This document shows, in pieces, positions 16,576-27,217 of a stretch of 64,000 nucleotides of DNA. Both the position numbers and the translations under genes were made by a program. Source of the stretch: Actinomycetes bacterium (lineage in GTDB: Bacteria; Actinomycetota; Acidimicrobiia; Acidimicrobiales; Bog-793); assembly GCA_021797795.1 (NCBI GenBank), contig JAJZZB010000004.1, forward strand, positions 6,791-70,790, given 5' to 3'. How positions within the stretch are numbered: position 1 is the first letter of the stretch; every line of letters begins with the position of its first letter. A model generated the notes under the pieces. That model ran no database searches. It had not been told where the DNA came from and worked only from the letters and a program-made list of their open reading frames with translations.

Positions 16576-18012
16576 GTGGACCCACTCGACGAGCTTCGGC
16601 GCGAGACGGCGGAACACGGCTACGGGATCCGGGTCGGCAACGGCAGCGGTGCTCGGGCGGCGTTCGTGCCGCCCGAGCACGGTCTCCTCGTCATCGGCCC
16701 ACCGCGCTCGGGCAAGACCTCGTCGCTCGTCGTGCCGAACGTGCTGTCCGCCTGCGGGCCCGTCGTCGCCACCTCGACCAAGGCCGACCTGCTGCGCGCC
16801 ACCTGCCATGCGCGCTCGCGCGTCGGGGAGTGCCTGCTGTTCGACCCGGGAGGGCGCACGCCACCGCTGGCCGGCGTTCGCACTGTCGGATGGTCGCCGC
16901 TTCTCACCTCCCACGACTGGGACGGCGCCACGTTGCTCGCCCAGACGATGGTGCTGACCGCCCGCCCCGCCTCAGAGCACGGGGAGGCCTACCACTGGAG
17001 CGAGCGGGCACAGGCGCTCCTCGCGCCGGCCTTCCACGCGGCTGCGCTCGACGAGATGGGGATGGCCCGGCTGGCCGCCATGGTCGACCGGCGCCAGGGA
17101 GCCGAGCTTCGAGCCGTCCTCGCCCGCCACGACGTGGAGATCCCTCTTCGCACACTGGAGGGCATTCTCGAGACCGACGAGCGCGAGCAGAGCGCCATCT
17201 GGTCGACCGCCGCCTCCATCCTCTCGGCCTACCGGTCCGAGCGTGCGCTCGCGTCGACCACACCCGAGGGCGTCGACTTCGACGGCCTCGTGAGAGGGGG
17301 AGACACCCTCTACCTCTGCTCGGGGTCCGAGGCGCAGCGCCAGGCCGCCCCGCTCGTCGCCGGGTTGATCCGCGACGTCCGGGCGGCGGCCTACCGGGCT
17401 GCGGCCGTGGGTGAGCTCGGATATGCCTGCGGCTCGCCGCCGCTGCTTCTCGTGCTGGACGAGCTCGCCAACATCGCGCCGCTGCACGACCTGCCCACTC
17501 TCGTCTCAGAAGGGGGGAGCCAGGGCGTGGTGACGCTCGCCTGCCTGCAGGACCTGAGCCAGGCCGTCGCCCGCTGGGGGCGTCTCGGAGAGGGCTTCCT
17601 CAGCCTGTTCAACACCAAGGTGGTCTTTCCCGGCGTCGGCGACACCCGTACCCTCGAGGCCTTCTCCCTCCTCGCAGGCGAGCACGAGGTCGAGTCCGTC
17701 ACCCGCACCGAGGGCGATCGCCTGACGGGGCTCGCCGGCCTGCTCGGTGCCCGCCACCCGCAGCGGCGCAGCGTCGGCACCCGCAAGGAGCGCCGGTTGC
17801 CTGTCGACCTCATCGCCCGCGGGCTCCCGGGTCACGCCCTGTGCATGGACGGGGCATCCCCCTCGTTCGTGGAGATGCGGCCGTGGTGGCGGGACCGGGT
17901 GGTCCGGGCGGCGGCCGGCCACACACCCGGGCAAGCCCGGGAGCGGGGCGGCGCCACCGGGCCGAGCGGGCCCGCGCTCTCGCGTGCCGGCGTCGCACGA
18001 GGAGGTCGGTGA
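16576..18012 (+). CDS. type IV secretion coupling protein-like ATPase (TraD/TraG/VirD4 family)
   Basis: Motifs: Walker A VIGPPRSGKTSSLVVPN, Walker B LLLVLDELANIAP, and a later VTLACLQDLSQ / FNTKVVFPG segment typical of T4CP/TraG-D_C proteins. Confidence 0.75.
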   Translation: MDPLDELRRETAEHGYGIRVGNGSGARAAFVPPEHGLLVIGPPRSGKTSSLVVPNVLSACGPVVATSTKADLLRATCHARSRVGECLLFDPGGRTPPLAGVRTVGWSPLLTSHDWDGATLLAQTMVLTARPASEHGEAYHWSERAQALLAPAFHAAALDEMGMARLAAMVDRRQGAELRAVLARHDVEIPLRTLEGILETDEREQSAIWSTAASILSAYRSERALASTTPEGVDFDGLVRGGDTLYLCSGSEAQRQAAPLVAGLIRDVRAAAYRAAAVGELGYACGSPPLLLVLDELANIAPLHDLPTLVSEGGSQGVVTLACLQDLSQAVARWGRLGEGFLSLFNTKVVFPGVGDTRTLEAFSLLAGEHEVESVTRTEGDRLTGLAGLLGARHPQRRSVGTRKERRLPVDLIARGLPGHALCMDGASPSFVEMRPWWRDRVVRAAAGHTPGQARERGGATGPSGPALSRAGVARGGR

Positions 18013-18029
18013 GGACCCCGCGCCCCGTG

Positions 18030-18785
18030 GGGACTGACGAGCCGGCACCAGTCTCCTGCGGCGCGGTCGACCGTCACGAACTCCGATCTGCCGGGCCCCG
18101 GGGCCGGTCGAAGAGACGACCACGGGGTCGCACGGGACCGATCGCATGCGGGCGGCGAGGGGGACTGGGCTCGCCCAGATGGTCGCACGTCGAGCCCCCG
18201 GCCTCGGCCCGAGCCCGTCGGCGGGACGGCCCTCACCCGGTCGTATCCGTTGTCGGCCACTCTCACCCACCCGTCCGGTGCGACTACGAGATCACGTGAA
18301 GCCCAGCGGCCCGCTCCCTCGCCGTTCGCTCCGCCCCCCACGGCCCGCACCGAGCCGTCTCCGCCGGCGGTGGCGACCCGTTACCGGAGCCGGTCGACTG
18401 CATGCAGCCGGCCCCCGCGCTCGAGATCGCGTCAGGCCGGCCAGAAAGGGTGCCGACCGCCACGCCTCGCCCCCGACGGGATGCCGGTCGCCACGGCCGT
18501 CGAGACGCAACCGGCCCTGTCCCTCCGCCAGATGGCGCCCTGCCTCGGCAGCGACCAGGGCACGCCGCCGTCTTCTGCCACCGCGACGCCGCCGACCGAC
18601 GGCGCCGCGGTGGGCTCACCCGAGGCGGTGCAGAAGGCGCCGTCTCGCCTGCCGCCATCGATCGGGCAGGCGCGGCGGCGGGAGAGCTCGGCTCCTCCGC
18701 TCGCCGGCACACCGGTCGGCGAGCGGGGGCAACCCCGAGTGGCGGTATCGGCGAGACGTGACCGCCCGGCGACTGGAGGTCGCAC
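18030..18785 (-). pseudogene. possible decayed gene (one reading frame with internal TGA and TAA stops)
   Basis: Minus ORFs 18432-18785 and 17832-18350 share one frame and are separated by in-frame TGA (18432) and TAA stops. Codon-position GC periodicity is present at 18481-18720. There are beta-propeller/NHL-like strings (DLVVAPDGWVRVADNGYDRVRAV). GC3 is weaker than in intact genes. Confidence 0.25.
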
Positions 18786-18867
18786 CCGACCGGGCGCGGG
18801 GCGAGGCAGGCGACGTCGAGGATCAGTGGTGCTCGCCTCGGCGCTCCTGCCGGGTCGGGCCCTGGCG

Positions 18868-19221
18868 TCAGGCGCGGCGGAAGCCGAGTGCAGCGGCTGC
18901 GTCCAGCTTCAACATCGACGGGTCCCACGGCGGATCCCACACCACGGTCACCCTCACCTGCCCCGCATCGCCGAGCGCCGCCTCGACGGCCGCCCGGGCC
19001 ATGACGGGAAGGCTCTCCGCTGCGGGGCAGCCGGGGGTGGTGAGCGTCATCTCGACCGCCAGCACCCCGTCCTCCTCGGCGACGGAGTACACGAGGCCGA
19101 GCGAGACCACGTCGAGACAGAGCTCGGGGTCGTAGACCGTCGAGAGCGCCTCGAGGGCACGCTCGACCCGTGCGGTCGTCCCCGCTCCCGGTCCGCCCGC
19201 ACCCTCGACATCGGCGTTCAC
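18868..19221 (-). CDS. DUF59 / SufT-like metal-sulfur cluster assembly factor family protein
   Basis: Typical DUF59 (MIP18-like) strings: VYDPELCLDVVSLGLVY .. MTLTTPGCPAAESL .. VVWDPPWDPSM. The GTG start overlaps the upstream stop (GTGA). Confidence 0.8.
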   Translation of the reverse strand: MNADVEGAGGPGAGTTARVERALEALSTVYDPELCLDVVSLGLVYSVAEEDGVLAVEMTLTTPGCPAAESLPVMARAAVEAALGDAGQVRVTVVWDPPWDPSMLKLDAAAALGFRRA

Positions 19222-19445
19222 GCCGGCCTCCTGAAGGTCACCTTCCAGTCGCCGCCGCCGAGCGACTCGGCGTCGTAGGCGAACCCCTCCGAGGACAACA
19301 CACCCTCGAGCGGCACCGGCTCGAAGGGAGCGAGCACGACGAGATCCTCACCCTCGGAGAGGGCGGCGACCGCCGACATGATCGTGGCGAACGGCTCCTC
19401 GCCCGCCGCCAGGATCGAACGCGCATCGACGATGGCCATGATCAC
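19218..19445 (-). CDS. DUF2249 domain protein
   Basis: 75 aa: IVDARSILAAGEEPFATIMSAVAALSEGEDLVVLAPFEPVPL. This single-domain DUF2249 pattern is repeated in the C-terminus of the 20457-21413 product. SD ggagagaggag lies upstream. Confidence 0.7.
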   Translation of the reverse strand: MIMAIVDARSILAAGEEPFATIMSAVAALSEGEDLVVLAPFEPVPLEGVLSSEGFAYDAESLGGGDWKVTFRRPA

Positions 19446-19477
19446 TCCTCTCTCCCGGGTGCATCGGGAACATTTTT

Positions 19478-19493
19478 TCTAGTCTTAACTAGA
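19478..19493. promoter_or_regulatory. operator site A: tctagtcttaactaga (perfect TCTAGT-N4-ACTAGA)
   Basis: Perfect 6+4+6 palindrome in an AT-rich island, 33 nt upstream of the DUF2249 start (19445, minus strand). Confidence 0.65.
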
Positions 19494-19549
19494 TCTTACT
19501 CGACACTGGGGAGGATGCAAGGGTCGAAGCGGGCCTGGTGAGGCGTTGT

Positions 19550-19565
19550 TCTGGTATAGACTAGA
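19550..19565. promoter_or_regulatory. operator site B: tctggtatagactaga
   Basis: One mismatch to the palindrome. It ends 5 nt before the ATG (19571) of the ArsR-type regulator and contains TAGACT (a TANNNT -10-like hexamer). Confidence 0.6.
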
Positions 19566-19570
19566 TATTC

Positions 19571-20254
19571 ATGGAGACGGCCACGCCGCCCGACGACGAG
19601 CTCCAGCGCGAGGCCCGCGCCCTCGGGGACCCCACCCGGCACCGCCTCTTCCGCTACATCGCGGACGCCCCACAACCCGTCGGCGTGGCGGAGCTCACCG
19701 AGTTCGCCGGGCTCAACCACAATGCCGTGCGCCAGCACCTCGCCATCTTGAGACAAGCCGGGCTCGTCATCGAGGAGACCGAGGCACGCTCTCGTCCGGG
19801 GCGGCCCCGGTTGCTCTACCGCCTGAACCCGGATGGCTCCGGTCGATGGGGGACCGACAGCCCGTACGCGTGGCTGGCACGGCTCTTGAGCGAGGCGGTC
19901 CGCCGCCGGCAGCCGCCACGGGTGGTCGGGCGCCGGGAAGGCCAGAGAGAGGCTGCCCGTGTCGCCGGCACCGCTGATCCCGTCGACCTGCTCGAGAGCG
20001 AGATCACCCAGCGGGGCTTTCGGCCCTCGCGCTCGGAGAAGGGGCAGCGGATCGACTTCCTCCTCGGCCGCTGCCCGTTCGCAGACGTGGCGGAGACCGA
20101 CCCGGCCACGGTGTGCCAACTCCACCTCGGACTCGCCGAGGGCCTCGCCGGGGCGCTCGGCGGCCTCGAAGTGGAGCGGCTCGTCCCGAAGAACCCGCGC
20201 CGGGCTGGATGCCGGCTGAGCCTCCGCCGAGACGCCGGGGCACCTACGAGCTGA
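19571..20254 (+). CDS. ArsR/SmtB-like winged-helix transcriptional regulator with Cys-containing C-terminal domain
   Basis: N-terminal ALGDPTRHRLFRYI .. VAELTEFAGLNHNAVRQHLAILRQAGLV. The C-terminal region has LGRCPFADV .. VCQLHLGLAEGL. Confidence 0.8.
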   Translation: METATPPDDELQREARALGDPTRHRLFRYIADAPQPVGVAELTEFAGLNHNAVRQHLAILRQAGLVIEETEARSRPGRPRLLYRLNPDGSGRWGTDSPYAWLARLLSEAVRRRQPPRVVGRREGQREAARVAGTADPVDLLESEITQRGFRPSRSEKGQRIDFLLGRCPFADVAETDPATVCQLHLGLAEGLAGALGGLEVERLVPKNPRRAGCRLSLRRDAGAPTS

Positions 20255-20384
20255 GCGGCGATCCGGCGCACGCGCCGGTCGCGCCGGTCCGGTTGTCGGG
20301 TCCCGGGCCTTCCACACGCGACCGGACCGAGCGGCGGGGCCTGGGGACCCGGAGACGCCACACACCGCGCGCTCGCGGAAAGCA

Positions 20385-20413
20385 GGCGGCCCGTGCACGG
20401 GTCGCCCTTTTTT
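20385..20413 (+). terminator. intrinsic terminator after the regulator gene
   Basis: Stem ggcggcccg / cgggtcgcc (9 bp with one G-U), loop tgca, followed by a run of six T (20408-20413). This is the only classical hairpin-plus-T-run seen in the window. Confidence 0.6.
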
Positions 20414-20428
20414 CTAGTATCTGTTAGA
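20413..20428. promoter_or_regulatory. operator site C: tctagtatctgttaga
   Basis: The left half is perfect and the right half is GTTAGA. It lies 29 nt upstream of ATG 20457. It shares the 11-mer ttttttctagt with site A. Confidence 0.55.
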
Positions 20429-20456
20429 TTTACACGGCAACAGACGAGGAGGAGAG

Positions 20457-21413
20457 ATGACCGTCACCGACACCGAGGCCTTCGAGGCCATGGTGAGACA
20501 CCACCGCCAACTGCTCGAGGACGTCGCCGGGGCGGTGACCGGCCTCGGACGCGCCGTGGCCGAAGGCAGCTCCTACGAGCGGTCCGCTGCGGAGCTCGTG
20601 GCCGTCATCGCCGGGGAGGTGCTGCCGCACGCCCTTGCCGAGGAGGAGTCGATCTACACCGCCGCCTCGGGACTCGCCGAGCTCGCTCCGCTCGTGAGAG
20701 AGATGTCCGGCGAGCACGCCGAGCTCGCCGCCATGACCGAGCGGATCGCCACCGCCTCTGACGGTCCGGCCGCCGCCGGCGAGGCCGCCGCCTTCCAGTC
20801 GCTGTTCGCCCGCCACGTCGACAAGGAGAACGAGCAGATCCTCCCGGCCCTGGCACGCGACCCAGGAGTCTCGCTCGCCGGTCTTCTCGAGCAGATGCAC
20901 AGCCGCCTCGTCGCCTCGGGCGCCGACGACCGCACCGGCGAAGGGCCCGGGCTGGAGGATCGCCTCGTCGAGCTTCTCCTCGCCGCCGCCGACGAGCTCG
21001 TCGGCTCGGGAGAGGGTGATCGGGGCTGCCGCCTGGCGGCGTCCACGTGGGCAGCGCTGCGGACGGCTCGCCCCGACCTCGCCCAGAAGGTCACCGCCGC
21101 CCTCCACCGCCTCGCACGCGCCGTCCCCAGCGCGCCCGTCTCGCTGCAGGCGCGCCACGGCGAGCTTCCGGTCATGCCGGTGCTCGACGTACGAGAGCTC
21201 GCCCCTGCGCGGCGCCACGAGGCGATCTTCGGCGCCTTCGACGCGCTCGCACCACAGGGCCGCTTCGTGCTCGTGAACGACCACGACCCGAAGCCGCTCC
21301 GCTACCAGTTCGAGGCCGAGCATCCCGGCGAGTTCAGCTGGGAGTACCTGGAACGAGGGCCGCGCACCTGGCGGGTGCGGATCGGGCGCGAGTCCGCCGT
21401 CCACGCAGGCTGA
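20457..21413 (+). CDS. hemerythrin (HHE cation-binding) domain - DUF2249 fusion protein
   Basis: SD aggaggagag is 1 nt before the ATG. Hemerythrin-like His/Glu motifs: MVRHHRQLLE, LPHALAEEE, FARHVDKENEQILP. C-terminal DUF2249: VLDVRELAPARRHEAIFGAFDAL .. FVLVNDHDPKPL. Confidence 0.75.
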   Translation: MTVTDTEAFEAMVRHHRQLLEDVAGAVTGLGRAVAEGSSYERSAAELVAVIAGEVLPHALAEEESIYTAASGLAELAPLVREMSGEHAELAAMTERIATASDGPAAAGEAAAFQSLFARHVDKENEQILPALARDPGVSLAGLLEQMHSRLVASGADDRTGEGPGLEDRLVELLLAAADELVGSGEGDRGCRLAASTWAALRTARPDLAQKVTAALHRLARAVPSAPVSLQARHGELPVMPVLDVRELAPARRHEAIFGAFDALAPQGRFVLVNDHDPKPLRYQFEAEHPGEFSWEYLERGPRTWRVRIGRESAVHAG

Positions 21414-22860
21414 CACCGCTGCGGGCGGGGTCCCCGACGGTGGGATCCCCGCCCGTGCACCGCGTGGATCCGCTCCCGCCCTCGCCGGCGAGCTCGGGTG
21501 ATGGGAGCCGGCGCGGCTTCAGCATCAACAGCGGCGTGAGGGAGAGGTTCACCGCGGTGACGAGGCCGGTCACGGCGAGCAGCGCGCCGGCGGCCACGGT
21601 CGCTGCCGGGAGCCGTCCGGCCAGTCCGGCGCAGAGCGCGGCGACGGCGGTGGTGACGGTCAGGTGGGAGAGCCCGGCCGCCCGGCGGGAGTAGAGGTCG
21701 GCGAAGGCGAGCGGGCGCCCCGAGGGCCCTGTCGTGACGCCCCGGGAGCGAAGAGCCGTCCAGACGACGAAGGGCACGACCTTGTGAGCGTGGCCGACGA
21801 GAGCTTCGAGCAGCCAGCCGGCGAAGGCGGCGACAGAGGCCGCCACGAGCGCCACGCCCTCTCTCTCGTCGCCCGGCAGGACGAACGCGCCCGCCAGCGC
21901 GAAGCCAGCGCCGACGGGGAGCCATGCGGCCGAGGTCAGGACGTAGGCGAGATGCAGGTCGGCACGCCGGCGTCGGTGGGCGACGTAGGTGGCGAGCGAG
22001 ACGAGGTGGGCCACGAGGCCGACACCGGCGAGGGCGGCGCCGGCTGCGGCGAGCGGGACGATCCCGAGCAGCACCCCCGGCGCGGCGAGCGCCACCCCCG
22101 CCGGGAGGGCGAGAACCGCGACCGATCCCGCCCGGTGCCGGCCGGGGAGGTGGGCGAGGAAGAACATCGGCCACAGCTTCTCGGCGACGGCGACGTAGCT
22201 GAGGCCGAGCCACCAGAACAGGCCCACGAGCGCGTGAGCGAGGACGACGTGCCCGGACAGCTCGAACCAGCGCCCACTCCGGTCGACCAGGAAGACGAGG
22301 CCGAAGCCACCGGTGAGGGCCAGTCCGACAAGGGCGAGTCGCAGGCCCACGACCTCCATGCCCTTGCCCCGAACCGAGAGCGGCGCCGAGAGGTTGGCGA
22401 GGATGACGGCGAACGCCACTCCTGCGAGGCCTCCACCGGCTCCGATGAGCCACTCGTGACCGAGTGCGAAGCCGAGGGGCAGGGACCAGGACGCCGCCGT
22501 CCAGGAGGCGAAGGTCATCCAGGCGAGACGGATCGAGCGCAGCGGGCGGCCGGTGACCACCGGCACGAACTGGTGCATGGCGCCGAGCACGCCCGTCGAG
22601 AGCGTCGCCAGCAGGCCGAAGTGGGCGGCGGCCACGACCGGATCGGCGGTCGGGTCCCCGGCGGCGGCGGTGCCTGCGAGCGCCAGGGTCACCCCGCAGG
22701 CGGCCAACCCGAGCGCGGCGGCCGCGAAGAACGCCAGCGGGACCGACGGCGGGGGGACCGCGCCGGGCACGCCGGCGGGGCGCCCCTGCCAGCTCCCCGA
22801 TCCCTGCGTCCCACTCGCCTGCGGGCTGGTGTCGCTCATCGGCCACTCCTCCTCGCTCAT
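21334..22860 (-). CDS. polytopic membrane protein with conserved-looking His motifs (heme-copper-oxidase-subunit-I/NnrS-like, unassigned)
   Basis: 508 aa with about 12 or more hydrophobic spans. His motifs: AAHFGLL..GAMHQFVPV, GHVVLAHALVGLFWW, FFLAH, VGHAHKVVPF. It overlaps the 3' end of the convergent gene by 80 nt. Confidence 0.7.
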   Translation of the reverse strand: MSEEEWPMSDTSPQASGTQGSGSWQGRPAGVPGAVPPPSVPLAFFAAAALGLAACGVTLALAGTAAAGDPTADPVVAAAHFGLLATLSTGVLGAMHQFVPVVTGRPLRSIRLAWMTFASWTAASWSLPLGFALGHEWLIGAGGGLAGVAFAVILANLSAPLSVRGKGMEVVGLRLALVGLALTGGFGLVFLVDRSGRWFELSGHVVLAHALVGLFWWLGLSYVAVAEKLWPMFFLAHLPGRHRAGSVAVLALPAGVALAAPGVLLGIVPLAAAGAALAGVGLVAHLVSLATYVAHRRRRADLHLAYVLTSAAWLPVGAGFALAGAFVLPGDEREGVALVAASVAAFAGWLLEALVGHAHKVVPFVVWTALRSRGVTTGPSGRPLAFADLYSRRAAGLSHLTVTTAVAALCAGLAGRLPAATVAAGALLAVTGLVTAVNLSLTPLLMLKPRRLPSPELAGEGGSGSTRCTGGDPTVGDPARSGVSLRGRRTRARSAPARCAALVPGTPS

Positions 22861-22866
22861 CGATAT

Positions 22867-22882
22867 TCTAGTCTAGGCTAGA
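22867..22882. promoter_or_regulatory. operator site D: tctagtctaggctaga
   Basis: One mismatch. It starts 7 nt upstream of the membrane-protein ATG (22860, minus strand). On that strand it reads TCTAGCCTAGACTAGA, with TAGACT 9 nt before the ATG. Confidence 0.6.
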
Positions 22883-22988
22883 TAAACAATGTGGTCCGGC
22901 TCCCTCGGGCCTCGCGCGGACCCGGGGAGTCGACGACCCACAGGGGTGCCCGCGGCGGACGCCTCCCCCGGTCGTCCCGGCCGAGCGC

Positions 22989-25169
22989 TCACCTGCCGAG
23001 TGCCCCACGGCCCGGAGCGTCCCGCCCCGGGCCGCGACGCTCGAGACCCGTGCTCCTCGACGCTTCTTCTCGCCCGCCGGCGATGCGCTCCGCCCGGAGC
23101 ACCAGCGGGGGTGCGCCCGCGTCGCCAAGGTGGTGGCCGGAGAACCAGGTCCGCTCCGCACGATCCCGCCAGGCTGCACGACCGCTCGGATCGACAGGAG
23201 GGCGGCCGAGGGCGGCGGCGAGAGACGGCGGCCGGACCGCCTCGAGAAGTCGCCCGAGGGTCGCGCCGGTGGGAGCAACGAGGACATGGGTGCGCTCGAC
23301 CCGTTCGAGCATGGCGGGCGAGACCTCCAACGGGGCGACGCCACCCACCACGACGAGCTGACGGACGCCGTCCCGCCCGCTTCCGGCCAGCTCCGAGCCG
23401 ACCCGCCGGGCGTCGACGACAGGGCACCTCGCCGCCAGGGCGGCCGCCAGAGCGCGATCGGCCACGGCGACGACCGACGGCCTGTCCGCCCCGGTCCCCG
23501 CCAGCTCGAGGACCTCCTCGCAGGCAGACGAGGCGTCTGCCACGAGACGGACCTCCACCCGGTCGCCAAGCTGTGTCCGCCCGGCGGTCGCCCGAGCCGG
23601 CCGTCCCGACCCCGGTTCGAGCGGCCTGGCCTGCTCGAGCACGCGCTCGAACAGGAGAGAGCACTCGAGCGAGCTGCGGCCGGCAAGCAGGACCGCCGAC
23701 GCGCCGGTGGCGGCACAGGCGCCGAGGGCCGAGGCGACCTCGTCGTGGAGCATCCTCCCGGCATCTGCCAGCACAAGTCGATCTCCGGTCACAAGCGACC
23801 CGGCCAGCTCGGAGACCCTCGCCACCGGGAACGTCTCGATGCCGGTGGCCGACTCGAATCCCCTGGCGGCCCGGCCCCCGGGGGCGAGCGCCACGACCCG
23901 CCCTGCCCCGCCGGCGAGGCGGGCGGCGGCATCGAGCGCCCCGAGACGCTGCCGTGGCCCGTAGCAGAGGAGCTCGGCGCCGGTCAGGCGCAGCTGCTCC
24001 GCGAATTGGGCGGCGGCGGCCCGGGCGGAGCGGAGGTGGGCTGGCGTGGTGAACCGCTCACCGACCTTGGCCACCGCCGCACTGGCGAGCACCTTGTCGA
24101 CGTCGCCCGCGATCTGCTCGATGGGGGCGCCCCCACGGAGGCTCGAGGCGCGGGCGACGAGGAGCGCGTCCCGGTCGAAGGTGCCATCGACCCACCCGGC
24201 TCCGGTGAGCCATGAGAGGTCCCCCCGCGGGATCCGGCCGTCGGCGCCACCGTGTCCTTCGGCGCGCCCTCCGGCAGCCTCGGCGACCCGGCTGGCCGAC
24301 AGCCCGAGCCGGTGGCCGCGTTCCAGCCATTCCTGGCGCAGCGCGTCGTAGGGTCGGGAGCGGTCCTTTGGTGGGCGGAGCGCTTCGGCGACCACCGTGT
24401 GGGCGGCGGGGCCGCGCAGGCCCTCCGCCCGGAGCGCCGCCTCGATGATCCGGCTCTGGCGCGAGAACTCCCGCACCGCAGCCCTCGAGACACCCACCAC
24501 CTCGGCGTAGTCGCGGCGCACGGGACCGAACGCCACCCCACCTCGTGAGAGCTCCCAGCGCAGCTGTGCCTCGAACAGCGCCCGCAGCGGGCGCTGGGCG
24601 CGGTAGATCCTGCGGCCGTCGAGGGCACCCCACTGCCCGTCTGCCGCCTGCGCCAGGTTGGCGATCAGCACGTGGGCGTGAAGGTGCGGGTCGTTCGCCC
24701 TGCTCGTGCGATGGGGGAAGCAGGCCGCCACGACACCGTCGAGCGCGAGCGTCGAGACGACGCCAGCGCGGCGACGGCGCGTCCTCGCGATCTGCTCCTC
24801 GAGGTAGCCGATCGTGGCCTCGACGGCGGCCCGGTGGGCACTCTCGACACGTCGCGAGACCGCCGGATCTCCGAGCCCGCACAGCAGGCTGACCGACTTC
24901 GGAGCCGACAGGACGACATCGAAGCCAGCGACGGCACCGGTGCGGGCCGCCTGCCGGCGGAGGCGCTCACCGGTGCTCGGATGGCGACCGGTGCACACCG
25001 CCCGCACCTCGGAGGGGACCGGGGTGGCGATCAGCCCGAGCGCTTCGCAGCCTCGGCCGAGCCAGTACGGGTCCGGCTCGACGAGCCCTTCGGGCCGGTC
25101 GGTCGTCGAGCGGACGGTGCCGAAGTAATAGCGCTCGGCACCCTGGCGGACCTTGGCGATGCGCAGCAT
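22989..25169 (-). CDS. MobF-family (TrwC/TraA-like) relaxase with degenerate helicase-like C-terminal half
   Basis: MLRIAKVRQGAERYYF is motif I with a Tyr pair. FDVVLSAPKSVS is present. HRTSRANDPHLHAHVLIANL is the His-triad motif III. ATG 25169 is preferred over the track start 25202. Confidence 0.8.
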   Translation of the reverse strand: MLRIAKVRQGAERYYFGTVRSTTDRPEGLVEPDPYWLGRGCEALGLIATPVPSEVRAVCTGRHPSTGERLRRQAARTGAVAGFDVVLSAPKSVSLLCGLGDPAVSRRVESAHRAAVEATIGYLEEQIARTRRRRAGVVSTLALDGVVAACFPHRTSRANDPHLHAHVLIANLAQAADGQWGALDGRRIYRAQRPLRALFEAQLRWELSRGGVAFGPVRRDYAEVVGVSRAAVREFSRQSRIIEAALRAEGLRGPAAHTVVAEALRPPKDRSRPYDALRQEWLERGHRLGLSASRVAEAAGGRAEGHGGADGRIPRGDLSWLTGAGWVDGTFDRDALLVARASSLRGGAPIEQIAGDVDKVLASAAVAKVGERFTTPAHLRSARAAAAQFAEQLRLTGAELLCYGPRQRLGALDAAARLAGGAGRVVALAPGGRAARGFESATGIETFPVARVSELAGSLVTGDRLVLADAGRMLHDEVASALGACAATGASAVLLAGRSSLECSLLFERVLEQARPLEPGSGRPARATAGRTQLGDRVEVRLVADASSACEEVLELAGTGADRPSVVAVADRALAAALAARCPVVDARRVGSELAGSGRDGVRQLVVVGGVAPLEVSPAMLERVERTHVLVAPTGATLGRLLEAVRPPSLAAALGRPPVDPSGRAAWRDRAERTWFSGHHLGDAGAPPLVLRAERIAGGREEASRSTGLERRGPGRDAPGRGALGR

Positions 25170-25240
25170 GCCGAAGCGTCCCCGCACGGCCTCACGCTCC
25201 ACCTCTCCTCGCTCTCCCGGCCCGCCTACCGGGTGACGGC

Positions 25241-27217
25241 TCAGTCCGGGCGGTACCGGTGCAGTGCCCGCTCGGCGGCATGCCCGGGCACCTGCCTCAG
25301 CTCCGGCGGGGAGAGCACCTCGGTCCCCGGCCCGAGCCGGAGCAGCAGTCGTCCGAACCAGCCCTCGGCGTCGCCGACCAGGATGTCGGCGGCGAGGCGG
25401 CCGTCGGACAGCTGCTCGATCGGCGAGGCTGCGACCTGGTCCACCCCGAGCTCGGAGGCGGGCGGGAACGCGATGCGGGCCTTCACGGTGTTCGGGCCCC
25501 CGAGGAACGCGAAGGGGCCGGCGAGCGCCTCGTCGAGCGACTCGGGCGACTCGAAGGAGACGCCCGTGCCACGACAGCTCGTGACCCGGTCGACCTGGAA
25601 TCGGCGGAGGTCACCGACGAGGTGGCAGAACCCGTCGAGGTACCAGCGACCCTCCCGCAGCACCACCTGATAGGGGTCGACCTGGCGGAGCGTCGCCTCG
25701 GTCGCGGAGCCAGAGAAGTACCCGATCTCCACCCGCTCGCGGAGATGGGCCGCCTCCTGCAGCTCGCGCAGGTGTGCGGGCTCGGGCACCTCCATCGAGA
25801 AGCGGGACTCGCCGAGCACCGACTCGAGCTTGGCGAGCGCCGAGCGCAGCGCACCCTCCTCGTCGGCCCCGGCGACCTCGAGGAGTGCCTTGGCGGCCGC
25901 CGCCAGGGCAAAGCCCTCCTCTGGGCTGAGGCGGCGGGGCCGGGCGAGGTGGCCGAGGCCGAAGGCCGACACCCTGTCCCCTTCGACGATGAGCTCGATC
26001 AGCTGGTCGGGGGTGTAGGGCGGCACGCCGCAGCAGGCCGCCAGCTCGAGGTCGTGGACGAGCTCCTCCTCGCTCATCTCGAAGCGCCGGGCGAGGTCGC
26101 CGATCTCGGCCTCCTGCACTCGGGCGAGGTGGACGAGCACGGCGAGCAACCGGCGTAGGCGCGCACCGGCGACGGGCACCGCCGAGGCGCCGGCGAGGCG
26201 CCGGCGCGTGCCACCGGCCTCGCCGGAGCTGGTGCTCGTCACCTGCGGGGGCTCCCCGCCGGGCGCCGTCGGCCCGCCCGCCATGGCCGAGAGCCGGGCG
26301 ACGACCGCTTCTCTCAACGGTGCCGGCGCCCTCACGACGGCTGCGTCCCCGAGTCCGGCCGCCCAGGAGACGAAGGCGTCCTCGTCGCCGACGGCAAGGT
26401 GGAGAACGACGCCGCCCTCGTCAGTCCAGCGGGCGACGGCGGATCCGGGGACGAGCGACGCCACCTGCCGGGCGAGGCGGGGGTCGATCTCGACCTCGGC
26501 CATGGGATGGGCATCCACCGGGTCGCCACCGAAGGGAAGGAGGTTGATCTCCGCTCCGAGGTCGAAGTCCGGCGGCGGCTCGAAGCCACCCGGCTCGCCG
26601 AGCACCGGCTCGCTCTCGAAGCGGTCGACCCGGAAGGTGCGCATGGCGCCTCCCTCGCCGCTCGTGCGGTCGCGGGCGACGAGGTACCAGGCGGCCTGGC
26701 GGAAGGTGAGCCCGTACGGCTCGACCTCGCGCCCACGGCCGTGGTAGCCAAAGCTCAGCGTGGCGGCCCGCCTCAGCGCCTCGTGCACGGCTCCGAGCGC
26801 CGGCACCGAGGGCAGGACGGCGATCGGCGCGTCGAGGCGCGTGCCGAGCCCGTGGCCGAGGGTGGACAGGGCGTCCTTCCCGGCGCTGCCACCGAGCTTC
26901 ACGGCTGCCACGGCGAAGGCGAGGGCCGTGGCCTCGGTGTCGTCGAGGCCGAGCTCGGGGAGGTAGTAGTCCTCGGGCCGGACGAGGTAGCCGATCTGCT
27001 CCTCGGCCTCGATGGGCGCCGTCGCCACCGGCACGCCGAGCTCGCGAAGCGCCCGCTTGTCCCGTTCGAAGGCCTGGCGGGCCGTCTCCTTGCCCTCCGG
27101 GTAGCCCTGCACCTTCTCGCGGATCTCGCGCAGCGACAGCGGCCGCTCGGTGTCGAGCAGCACGAGCATCAAGTTGGTGAGCCGCTCGAGGCGGTCGTGA
27201 CGCGGGGGCGGGGGCAC
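25241..27217 (-). CDS. pafBC: fused PafB-PafC-type HTH-WYL-WCX transcriptional regulator
   Basis: There are two tandem HTH+WYL units. Unit 1: RLERLTNLMLVLLDTERPLSLREIREKV .. FRQAAWYLVARD. Unit 2: RLRRLLAVLVHLARVQEAEIGDLARRFEMSEEELVHDL .. VVLREGRWYLDGFC. GTG start. Confidence 0.75.
   Translation of the reverse strand: MPPPPRHDRLERLTNLMLVLLDTERPLSLREIREKVQGYPEGKETARQAFERDKRALRELGVPVATAPIEAEEQIGYLVRPEDYYLPELGLDDTEATALAFAVAAVKLGGSAGKDALSTLGHGLGTRLDAPIAVLPSVPALGAVHEALRRAATLSFGYHGRGREVEPYGLTFRQAAWYLVARDRTSGEGGAMRTFRVDRFESEPVLGEPGGFEPPPDFDLGAEINLLPFGGDPVDAHPMAEVEIDPRLARQVASLVPGSAVARWTDEGGVVLHLAVGDEDAFVSWAAGLGDAAVVRAPAPLREAVVARLSAMAGGPTAPGGEPPQVTSTSSGEAGGTRRRLAGASAVPVAGARLRRLLAVLVHLARVQEAEIGDLARRFEMSEEELVHDLELAACCGVPPYTPDQLIELIVEGDRVSAFGLGHLARPRRLSPEEGFALAAAAKALLEVAGADEEGALRSALAKLESVLGESRFSMEVPEPAHLRELQEAAHLRERVEIGYFSGSATEATLRQVDPYQVVLREGRWYLDGFCHLVGDLRRFQVDRVTSCRGTGVSFESPESLDEALAGPFAFLGGPNTVKARIAFPPASELGVDQVAASPIEQLSDGRLAADILVGDAEGWFGRLLLRLGPGTEVLSPPELRQVPGHAAERALHRYRPD

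Follow-up and report, generated by a model that had tools for sequence, protein, structure and literature searches.

In the window analyzed here, a 64,000-nucleotide stretch of actinobacterial DNA, four copies of the palindrome TCTAGT-N4-ACTAGA mark the promoters of a regulator gene and three target units. The sites are real and non-random, and the combination of regulator, site, and target genes recurs across about 80 related actinobacterial genomes. The sites are very probably operators of the neighboring iron-sulfur-type regulator, a pairing suggested by co-occurrence. Together, the recurring regulator, site, and targets define what would be a previously undescribed stress regulon. See Table 1 for the positions of all features.

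Table 1. Features of the cluster in the 64-kb window
Feature	Position	Strand	Size, sequence, and basis
DUF59/SufT-like Fe-S assembly protein	18868..19221	-	117 aa, TTPGCP motif; Pfam PF01883, E 3.8e-18
DUF2249 protein	19218..19445	-	73-75 aa; Pfam PF10006, E 8.5e-16
Site A	19474..19497	.	24-bp element; core 19478-19493 TCTAGTCTTAACTAGA; candidate operator of the leftward DUF2249-DUF59 operon
Site B	19546..19569	.	24-bp element; core 19550-19565 TCTGGTATAGACTAGA; putative autoregulatory operator
Regulator	19571..20254	+	227 aa; Pfam HTH_20/HTH_5, alignments, AF2 model, Foldseek
Predicted intrinsic terminator hairpin of regulator gene	20385..20406	+	terminator scan; fold -18.6 kcal/mol, z -3.6
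Site C	20409..20432	.	24-bp element; core 20413-20428 TCTAGTATCTGTTAGA; candidate operator of the hemerythrin-DUF2249 gene
Hemerythrin (HHE) domain fused to DUF2249	20457..21413	+	318 aa; Pfam PF01814 and PF10006
12-helix membrane protein, predicted heme-copper oxidase/NO reductase fold	21334..22860	-	501 aa from ATG 22839
Site D	22863..22886	.	24-bp element; core 22867-22882 TCTAGTCTAGGCTAGA; candidate operator of the leftward membrane-protein gene

Palindromic sites in the window

The four sites had been reported in a sequence-only reading of this DNA, and we found all of them with the coordinates and sequences it gave. A search of both strands allowing up to two mismatches returned just these four, in agreement with its remark that no further hexamer pair was noticed. 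Across 100 dinucleotide shuffles, the expected number is 0.27 and the highest 2; none reached four. Site A has no mismatches and had been called a perfect palindrome; this is true of its two 6-nt arms but not of the central CTTA. A 24-nt matrix derived from the window and its relatives scores sites A, B, C, and D at 36.5, 35.7, 31.5, and 36.7 bits, respectively, and has no other match of at least 12 bits in the rest of the window. The sites also contain 7 of the 12 CTAG tetramers in the 64 kb. They make up four of the nine AT-rich islands (GC ≤45% over 30 nt), bearing out the observation that each lies in a short AT-rich island. The shared flanks are likewise real, as a T borders all four cores on both sides and the 11-mer TTTTTTCTAGT is common to sites A and C.

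Judging from its sequence, the full site is larger than the 16-bp core and is best described as a 24-bp element, WWnT-TCTAGT-N4-ACTAGA-AnWW. The A/T flanks, at positions unused in site selection, are symmetric and 96–99% A/T amid DNA of roughly 70% GC.

Recurrence in related loci and promoter geometry

We compared the window with 80 related actinobacterial genome loci in which the regulator is 64–85% identical. Scanning the 872 kb of window and related loci with the motif matrix at a threshold of at least 12 bits gave 195 sites, versus 3 after local shuffling. Of the 81 regulator genes, 75 are preceded by a site no more than 50 nt from the start, whatever the neighboring genes. In a phylogenetic footprint of 70 distinct promoters at the regulator gene, a 26-bp block carries 1.23 bits per position versus 0.16–0.22 in flanking promoter DNA, and the consensus of this site B class is TT.TTCtgGTgTAgaCTAGAA.

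Dozens of genomes also keep sites ahead of target genes from the families found in the window. They precede all 21 DUF2249 genes of related loci (DUF2249-DUF59), 22 of 23 orthologous hemerythrin-DUF2249 genes, and 12 of 14 orthologous membrane-protein genes; the last is seen also in loci L084–L087. This conservation supports the earlier proposal of a dimeric operator giving autoregulation plus three target promoters. The proposed compact, dedicated regulon holds within the window, but in relatives it also takes in unlinked genes, with sites before 13 of 18 1-Cys peroxiredoxin genes, before aceE and tal, and before others. At L084 and L085, the target clusters keep their sites, with no regulator in roughly 17 kb of retrieved surrounding sequence, which suggests regulation in trans.

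The placement of the site was examined relative to -10-like TANNNT hexamers, which were picked by eye in AT-rich DNA; a sigma-70 consensus scan found no promoter. The hexamer lies downstream of the site in the hemerythrin and membrane classes, within it in the regulator class, and at its left edge in the peroxiredoxin and DUF2249 classes. Because its position varies by gene class, the motif appears to be an operator that overlaps the core promoters rather than a sigma or promoter element. At site A, the core is adjoined by a -10-like TAAGAT on the minus strand (by eye). The gap to the DUF2249 gene, given earlier as 33 nt, is 32 nt to GTG 19445 or 38 nt to ATG 19439, the start in public gene calls (73 aa). 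Site B holds a -10-like TAGACT, and 5 nt separate its end from the regulator ATG; the regulator mRNA is therefore probably leaderless. At site C, the T-run of the regulator terminator also serves as the left-hand A/T flank. The distance between site D and the first ATG of the membrane-protein gene (22860) is 6 nt, not 7 nt, and the public gene call and a Shine-Dalgarno sequence, GAGGAGGAG, favor the second ATG, 22839, at 27 nt from the site. The cluster is flanked by conjugation genes.

The regulator, its targets, and a proposed mechanism

The regulator comprises an N-terminal ArsR-type winged helix, a helical linker, and a C-terminal sensory domain. Its DNA-binding features include R54-Q55-H56 (R-x-H) in the recognition helix and R75-P76-G77-R78-P79 (a GRP AT-hook) in the wing, and the C-terminal domain carries the pattern C168-x13-C182-x2-H185-x28-C214. 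Alignments show that R54/H56, G77-R78-P79, and C168, C182, H185, and C214 are invariant among relatives at 66–85% identity, and invariant or at least 90% conserved at 32–55% identity. A Foldseek search with the AF2 model (pLDDT 82) matched ArsR/Phr wHTH proteins and, for the C-terminal part, Bet3, the latter weakly (rank 45, TM 0.37/0.51). A profile of the C-terminal domain found nothing among PDB sequences. The regulator scores 46.9 with NF033788, below the cut-off of 55, and 24.9 bits with NCBIfam SufR_cyano (TIGR02702; cut-off 178.8), which covers the wHTH and wing only. Among its relatives, there are weak profile matches to NCBIfam MsvR (5/62) and Pfam V4R (10/62). A 47% identical paralogue in another gene context is without such a site.

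The earlier description of the regulator as ArsR-type holds for its DNA-binding fold only. Motifs and fold, rather than any significant similarity over the full length, place the protein as a whole with the SufR/ArnR-like (COG2345) [4Fe-4S] factors. This grouping makes NO, oxidants, or Fe-S status the likely signal rather than a metal ion. The regulon content fits NO or oxidant stress, as it includes a di-iron hemerythrin, an NOR/oxidase-fold protein, a SufT-like DUF59 protein, a peroxiredoxin, and an AhpD-like protein. The DUF59 gene is second in its operon, and its product matches NCBIfam SUF_assoc/SufT below cut-off. The membrane protein carries invariant histidines and has no sequence match in Pfam, NCBIfam, or PDB. 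The best Foldseek matches of its AF2 model (pLDDT 76.5) are cbb3 CcoN and cNOR NorB (TM 0.49–0.59, probability 1.0).

From these data, we infer binding by the 19571–20254 protein, the sign of regulation, the cofactor, and the signal as follows, in what we consider, taken whole, a probable explanation. A regulator homodimer would occupy the four palindromes, each half reading one TCTAG(T) half-site via its winged helix, and the symmetric A/T flanks accord with the AT-hook model shown for SufR. The sites would overlie the -10 region or transcription start of all four promoters, so that bound regulator would repress its own gene, DUF2249-DUF59, hemerythrin-DUF2249, and the HCO/NOR-fold membrane protein. 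The Cys3-His site (C168, C182, H185, C214) would supply the cluster ligands, as in ArnR and SufR, and the cluster-bound form would be the one that binds DNA. Once the cluster is nitrosylated, oxidized, or lost (through NO, peroxide/O2, or Fe-S limitation), the regulator would let go of the DNA and the regulon would be induced.

The same operator-repressor pair might instead use a Zn-thiolate/disulfide redox switch or a metal site as sensor, as in archaeal MsvR or RsrA-type proteins, which we regard as possible though unlikely. Cys3-His is a well-known Zn-binding set too, TRAPPC3 binds Zn with its V4R/Bet3 fold, Zn was present in ArnR preparations, and MsvR, a thiol-based redox repressor, shares the architecture (wHTH plus V4R, three conserved Cys), in line with the weak MsvR and V4R matches among the relatives. 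However, in pattern and spacing the ligands agree with the experimentally shown Fe-S ligands of SufR and ArnR, the fourth ligand position is held by a metal-binding residue, His among them, in a preprint's alignment of 326 COG2345 members (bioRxiv 10.64898/2025.12.26.696629), and the conserved Cys of MsvR are spaced differently (C206, C232, C240). Less likely again is that the regulator is an activator that, once modified by its signal, recruits RNA polymerase or remodels the spacer. With the downstream TAnAnT taken as the -10 element, the site would center near -22 at the hemerythrin and membrane-protein promoters, a position used by MerR-type activators. However, in the regulator, peroxiredoxin, and DUF2249 classes the site lies over the putative -10 and start; the fold is of the wHTH rather than the MerR type, and the characterized relatives SufR and ArnR both repress when cluster-bound.

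Co-occurrence alone cannot name the binding protein, and some target clusters have no nearby regulator gene, so another, unlinked factor might bind the palindrome, with the adjacent regulator merely a regulon member. We find this very improbable, given the site before regulator genes irrespective of their neighbors, the paralogue that lacks it, and the fit of the symmetric A/T flanks to the AT-hook. Finally, it is barely credible that the repeats are non-regulatory (chance in AT-rich DNA, alternative-sigma -10/-35 elements, or mobile-element remnants), despite the AT-rich islands, the TANNNT-like hexamers in the consensus, and the flanking conjugation genes, as the sites far outnumber those in local-composition shuffles, their two-fold symmetry extends into the flanks, their placement relative to -10-like hexamers and start codons differs by gene class, and they are kept at orthologous promoters in genomes without conjugation genes.

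Comparison with known regulators

ArnR of Corynebacterium glutamicum carries a [4Fe-4S] cluster, responds to NO, and represses narKGHJI and hmp (PMC12343034). Compared by motif and fold, it resembles our regulator in size, ArsR/MarR-like wHTH, dimerization helix, and C-terminal sensory domain, which recalls TRAPPC3/Bet3 in fold searches for both proteins. Three Cys are conserved (179/193/223 in ArnR, 168/182/214 here) at spacings of 14 and 30 in ArnR versus 14 and 32 here, with a conserved His near the cluster. Both occur in Actinobacteria, with targets that handle NO or O2 chemistry. The targets themselves differ, being nar and hmp for ArnR and hemerythrin-DUF2249, DUF2249-DUF59, the HCO-fold membrane protein, and peroxiredoxin here, and ArnR has a short A/T-rich 10-bp operator consensus in place of a well-defined 16-bp palindrome.

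SufR (Mycobacterium tuberculosis Rv1460, Streptomyces, cyanobacteria) is the founding SufR-like COG2345 member; it reportedly tolerates core mutations, the core palindrome adding little to binding, which is reported to depend mostly on the A/T flanks (bioRxiv 10.64898/2025.12.26.696629). It shares the R-x-H in helix alpha3, the GRP AT-hook in the wing, and the ligand pattern C-x13-C-x2-(E/H)-x~28-C, with spacings of 13 and 28 and E195 in SufR versus 14 and 32 here. SufR also has a palindromic site between A/T tracts and is an autoregulated repressor, as proposed here; the targets here include an Fe-S maturation protein of the DUF59/SufT type. Unlike SufR, the regulator is not beside a sufBCDS operon, scores far under the TIGR02702 cut-off, and has His rather than Glu as fourth ligand. 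Here conservation peaks in the core of the site, so the recognition mode may differ.

MsvR of methanogens, a redox-sensitive autorepressor with a wHTH and a V4R domain (PMC3729527), likewise pairs an ArsR-type DNA-binding domain with a V4R/Bet3-like, Cys-containing sensor in a homodimer, and has inverted-repeat operators at its own promoter and before oxidative-stress genes. However, it is archaeal, its operator is TTCG-N7-9-CGAA, its conserved Cys are placed differently and form a thiol-based rather than an Fe-S switch, and profile matches to it are weak and confined to a minority of the regulator's relatives.

Classical ArsR/SmtB proteins (SmtB, CzrA, CmtR, NmtR) are also winged-helix, dimeric, often autoregulated repressors with 12-2-12-type inverted-repeat operators. 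We rejected a classical metal sensor of this kind on the SufR/ArnR-like hallmarks of the regulator. Those proteins span about 100–120 aa, and their metal sites lie on alpha3N or alpha5, whereas the regulator described here has 227 aa, with a sensory domain set apart at the C terminus and an AT-hook in the wing.

Four copies of a palindrome at the promoters of the cluster

Re-reading the window, we found all four copies of TCTAGT-N4-ACTAGA at the positions given by an earlier, sequence-only reading, which had also noticed no others. A search of both strands of the 64 kb, allowing up to two mismatches, returned only sites A-D, against a chance expectation of 0.27 sites; none of 100 dinucleotide shuffles reached four under the same settings. 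Chance matches in AT-rich DNA are ruled out by these whole-window shuffles and by shuffles within 50-nt blocks. The AT-rich setting described for the sites is also real: the window has a GC content of 72.8% and just nine such islands, and the sites are four of them. Seven of the 12 CTAG tetramers in the 64 kb lie within sites A-D. Two details had to be adjusted. Site A, described as a perfect palindrome, is one in its arms, to which the palindromy is limited. The core of site B does end 5 nt before the regulator ATG, but sites A and D lie 38 and 27 nt from their genes, because the public calls place the DUF2249 start at ATG 19439 and that of the membrane protein at its second ATG, 22839.

Sites, genes and neighboring features of the cluster, in window positions
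Feature	Position	Strand	Sequence	Source
TraG/VirD4-like type IV secretion coupling protein	16576-18012	+
Very GC-rich stretch, ~850 nt	18013-18867
DUF59 / FeS_assembly_P	18868-19221	-		Pfam
DUF2249	19218-19445	-		Pfam
Site A	19478-19493		TCTAGTCTTAACTAGA	window sequence
Site B	19550-19565		TCTGGTATAGACTAGA	window sequence
ArsR-type wHTH regulator (HTH_20, HTH_5), 227 aa	19571-20254	+		Pfam
Intrinsic terminator of the regulator gene	20385-20406	+
Site C	20413-20428		TCTAGTATCTGTTAGA	window sequence
Hemerythrin + DUF2249	20457-21413	+		Pfam
Membrane protein, no family	21334-22860	-		Pfam
Overlap of convergent 3' ends	21334-21413
Site D	22867-22882		TCTAGTCTAGGCTAGA	window sequence
TrwC-type relaxase	22989-25202	-
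658-aa protein, two WYL/WCX modules + PafC-type HTH	25241-27217	-

The regulator gene ends in a strong intrinsic terminator (-18.6 kcal/mol, z -3.6), whose T-run is also the left A/T flank of site C. This double use explains the 11-mer TTTTTTCTAGT that the sequence-only reading had noticed there. With the regulator transcript ending at this terminator, each of the four sites therefore belongs to a promoter of its own, and the four promoters are spread over three intergenic regions. A hairpin in the DUF2249 leader was not significant (z -0.9).

The cluster lies between the genes for the coupling protein and the relaxase. The coupling protein is syntenic in the closest relative alone (L001, 90% identity), and neither gene occurs in the other 79 loci; a tRNA scan of the window found none. 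These surroundings may represent cargo or leftover DNA of an integrative conjugative element. The GC-rich stretch between the coupling-protein gene and DUF59 has no convincing gene, and a repeat search of it gave nothing notable, just short GC-rich inverted repeats. Rfam returned no family for the whole window. Directly adjoining the relaxase gene is that of the 658-aa protein, a fused PafBC-like DNA-damage regulator.

The element in related loci

The regulator has ~2,000 detectable homologues. The best 120, excluding one entry identical to the window protein, are 68-85% identical to it, and most of those with a source name come from metagenome-assembled genomes (MAGs) of Acidimicrobiales and other Actinomycetota. 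Cultured organisms are represented by Acidiferrimicrobium sp. IK (L010) and Aciditerrimonas ferrireducens JCM 15389 (L055). We collected 80 regulator-encoding genome loci, 808 kb in ~12-kb pieces, in which the simple pattern TCTAGT-N4-ACTAGA occurs 108 times. A 24-nt matrix applied at a threshold of at least 12 bits found 195 sites in the window and loci, whereas the same DNA shuffled in 50-nt blocks yielded 3; its only window matches are A-D, at 31.5-36.7 bits. Positions -3/-2 and +19/+20, which were not used in picking the sites, are symmetrically 96-99% T or A. The full element is WWnT-TCTAGT-N4-ACTAGA-AnWW (consensus TTTTTCTAGTCTAGACTAGAAAAA), a palindrome with A/T tracts on both sides, which is a SufR-like feature. 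Across 70 distinct regulator promoters, conservation amounts to 1.23 bits per position over the core and the 5-nt left flank and ~1 bit over the 5-nt right flank, forming a 26-bp block outside of which it is 0.16-0.22 bits. Judged from these aligned promoters, this is a clean phylogenetic footprint.

The motif is kept upstream of orthologous regulator and target genes in the relatives. Counted by gene class from locus maps and distance statistics, an upstream site is present for 75 of 81 regulator genes, 22 of 23 hemerythrin-DUF2249 genes, all 21 DUF2249(-DUF59) genes, 12 of 14 membrane-protein genes, 13 of 18 1-Cys peroxiredoxin genes (a class assigned from Pfam AhpC-TSA and 1-cysPrx_C) and 4 of 6 aceE genes. 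The sites are real and non-random, and they occur together with the regulator and the targets. The description of a compact dedicated regulon holds for the window cluster, but in the relatives the regulon reaches beyond it, to peroxiredoxin, aceE and others. Two target clusters fetched via the membrane protein (L084 and L085) carry sites with no regulator gene within the fragment, and therefore the element works in trans. One 47% identical paralogue (L083) has another gene context and no motif, a single case that is uninformative on the wider family.

In many relatives, the peroxiredoxin gene with its motif lies ~1-2 kb downstream of the regulator (L014, L017, L018, L024, L027, L030, L033, L036, L052, and L062), and the peroxiredoxin promoters have an extra conserved GTCGAC(A/T)AT box ~22 nt upstream of the motif. 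The motif precedes aceE and also sits between aceE and a transaldolase gene in relatives; L017:748 and L027:1145 are further positions listed with the peroxiredoxin, aceE, and transaldolase cases. Other sites of at least 18 bits include as neighbors an AhpD-like gene, MetE, a universal stress protein, and a cNMP-binding protein. Single motif cases adjoin these and NDH-2-like genes.

We considered whether the element could be a promoter element read by a sigma factor. With the sites aligned per gene class, -10-like TANNNT hexamers could be assigned by eye. They fall directly downstream of the core in hemerythrin and membrane-protein promoters (ACTAGAgaTAnAnT), within the core in the regulator promoter (TAGACT), and at the left edge of the site in peroxiredoxin (TATACT) and DUF2249 (TAAGTT) promoters. 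A sigma element would stay at a fixed position, whereas this one varies by gene class relative to the hexamers and to the start codons, and we reject the sigma-factor reading. It is also disfavored by the two-fold symmetry, which extends into the flanks. The varying position fits a dimeric factor occluding core promoters. A scan for E. coli-type sigma-70 consensus promoters gave no matches, which is uninformative for a 73% GC actinobacterium.

In most loci, the regulator is preceded by a 25-nt leader that includes a Shine-Dalgarno sequence. In the window and L001, the ATG follows 5 nt after the core without such a sequence, and the regulator mRNA is therefore probably leaderless. The autoregulatory sites are systematically weakened in their left half, with TCYGGT instead of TCTAGT (67 loci, site B among them). 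Their right half and internal TAGACT are retained, which suggests that the operator is deliberately weaker or else constrained by the -10 hexamer that it overlaps. Overall, the comparative evidence supports the element as a dimeric operator, to which the adjacent regulator would bind.

A predicted iron-sulfur sensor

The N-terminus of the regulator has Pfam winged helix-turn-helix matches (HTH_20, 2.7e-9; HTH_5, 5.2e-7) and Foldseek matches to the ArsR-type proteins Phr, ArsR, CzrA, and SmtB. Its AF2 model (pLDDT 82) consists of the wHTH, two long helices, and an alpha/beta domain. The recognition helix (predicted helix 50-62) carries an Arg-x-His ('RRH') motif, R54-Q55-H56. R54 and H56 are invariant in an alignment of relatives at 66-85% identity and kept in at least 90% of 61 relatives at 32-55% identity; their match to SufR R50 and H52 was drawn from position in the predicted helix rather than from direct alignment. 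The wing loop between predicted strands 66-71 and 80-85 is a GRP AT-hook, R75-P76-G77-R78-P79, invariant in the closer alignment; in the more distant one, R78 is invariant and G77 and P79 are kept in at least 90%. The C-terminal domain contains three cysteines, C168, C182, and C214, and H185 three residues past the second of them. All four are invariant among the closer relatives, and among the more distant ones C168 and C214 are invariant, while C182 and H185 are kept in at least 90%.

An exhaustive search with the C-terminal domain returned 676 representative clusters, mostly ~220-240-aa proteins of the same architecture. The domain of the window regulator has no Pfam match and nothing meaningful among PDB sequences. 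For this part of the model, Foldseek placed the TRAPP subunit Bet3 (2j3r_A) at rank 45 (TM 0.37/0.51, 142 columns). Because of the Cys spacings of 14 and 32, the His at the fourth position, the GRP wing, and the R-x-H helix, we place the regulator, from its sequence, as a new subfamily of SufR/ArnR-like regulators with a predicted [4Fe-4S] cofactor. The label ArsR-type in the sequence-only reading is thus apt for the DNA-binding wHTH, but not in the sense of a metal sensor, as the protein is predicted to be an Fe-S-type sensor instead.

Membership in a described family was weighed in each case. ArnR controls narKGHJI and hmp, and no nar or hmp gene is found among the motif-adjacent families examined in the window and 80+ loci; the regulator is therefore not ArnR proper. 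For SufR proper, the model TIGR02702 has a cut-off of 178.8 bits, whereas the regulator reaches 24.9 bits, over residues 39-95 alone. The neighbors are DUF2249, DUF59, hemerythrin, and the membrane protein, with no sufBCDS or suf operon adjoining. Pfam V4R is the sole C-terminal family match among relatives, weak and in 10 of 62, and the window protein itself has neither a V4R nor an MsvR match; furthermore, the operator sequence differs from TTCG-N7-9-CGAA of MsvR. Matches of relatives to MsvR are likewise weak and limited to a minority, and MsvR is not taken as the family. A classical ArsR/SmtB metal sensor is rejected on score (NF033788, 46.9 bits, below the cut-off of 55), on size (227 aa, twice that of the family, whose members have ~100-120 aa with an alpha3N or alpha5 metal site), and on the separate Cys3-His C-terminal domain.

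Candidate function of the regulon and comparison with known systems

Neither Pfam, NCBIfam, nor PDB sequences gave a match to the 501-aa membrane protein, whose homologues are all annotated as "hypothetical." Its AF2 model (pLDDT 76.5) has a predicted 12-helix subunit-I fold of the heme-copper oxidase (HCO)/NOR superfamily, with Foldseek matches to CcoN of cbb3 (3mk7), NorB (4xyd and 3o0r), and ba3 oxidase (probability 1.0, TM 0.49-0.59). Seven His are invariant, with H350-x-H352 in predicted helix 10; judged from sequence and helix position, these may include the six canonical His ligands for two hemes and CuB/FeB. On the strength of the model, the protein looks like an uncharacterized heme-copper-oxidase-superfamily homologue. 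It always travels with hemerythrin-DUF2249 and DUF2249-DUF59. Its gene and that of hemerythrin-DUF2249 are convergent and share 80 nt at their 3' ends, where its low-confidence C-terminal tail is encoded (pLDDT <50 from residue 452); comparable overlaps are present in L059, L074, and L075.

HCO-homology proteins are reportedly the subject of work by Pei et al. in 2014. In a haloarchaeon, denitrifying conditions induce DUF2249 proteins (PMC11218638). DrpA and DrpB, two such proteins of Thermus, have been investigated for their part in nitrate respiration there (PMC6282519). With reference to Pei et al. 2014, the haloarchaeal paper also links DUF2249 proteins to hemerythrins and to homologues of heme-copper oxidases (PMC11218638).

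As to which protein binds, in which direction it regulates, with what cofactor, and in response to what signal, we infer the following scheme. A cluster-bound regulator homodimer would bind each 24-bp element, with its recognition helices on the TCTAG half-sites and its AT-hooks in the A/T flanks, and would block RNA polymerase at its own promoter and at the three target promoters. The cluster would be modified or removed by NO, by oxidants, or when Fe-S supply fails, releasing the regulator. The target set fits this model because it comprises a di-iron hemerythrin-DUF2249, DUF2249 with a SufT-like DUF59, and a CcoN/NorB-like membrane protein; we also count the peroxiredoxin and AhpD-like targets of relatives as fitting.

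A bolder proposal, which we put forward tentatively and consider rather unlikely, is that the regulon could be an unrecognized NO/O2-detoxifying or Fe-S-repair module. It would consist of the HCO/NOR-fold membrane protein with its seven invariant His, hemerythrin-DUF2249, and DUF2249-DUF59. It would be switched on by SufR/ArnR-like Fe-S sensors of a third functional kind, which, unlike SufR, would read a base-specific 16-bp palindrome besides the A/T flanks. If true, the long-unknown DUF2249 and the unannotated HCO-fold membrane-protein family would gain a testable function in actinobacteria. 

The regulon joins DUF2249, hemerythrin, DUF59/SufT, 1-Cys peroxiredoxin, and this predicted heme-copper-oxidase-fold protein, and is a concrete lead to the role of DUF2249 and HCO-homology proteins in NO/oxidant defense. 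Its hosts are Acidimicrobiia and other Actinomycetota known mostly from metagenomes.

SufR and ArnR are the only members of COG2345 (SufR-like) with known targets (10.64898/2025.12.26.696629, a December 2025 preprint), and the present proteins would add a third subfamily, one with a precisely defined operator, autoregulation, and a regulon that is conserved. In the same preprint, the cryo-EM structure of Mtb SufR on DNA shows [4Fe-4S] ligands C179, C192, E195, and C220 and an 'RRH' motif in alpha3; conservation of the GRP motif and of three Cys extends across 326 COG2345 proteins, >96% of which have Glu, His, Asn, Asp, or Cys at the fourth ligand position. ArnR of C. glutamicum is a homodimeric NO-sensitive [4Fe-4S] repressor with Cys at 179, 193, and 223, a conserved His nearby, and a TRAPPC3/Bet3-like sensory domain (PMC12343034). 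Compared with the window regulator, the Cys spacings are 14 and 30 in ArnR and 13 and 28 in SufR, and Mtb SufR has Glu where the window regulator has His. The core palindrome is the best-conserved part of the element here, whereas SufR is reported to tolerate core mutations. Because of this contrast with the low core specificity of SufR, the regulator is a useful comparison for how a wHTH-plus-AT-hook protein reads DNA. Archaeal MsvR, which follows the same two-domain logic, is an analogue at a greater distance (PMC3729527). We found no description of this regulator subfamily, motif, or regulon in the literature searched. What is new is a subfamily of a recently recognized family; its operator is well defined, and its regulon is conserved in actinobacteria that have been little studied.
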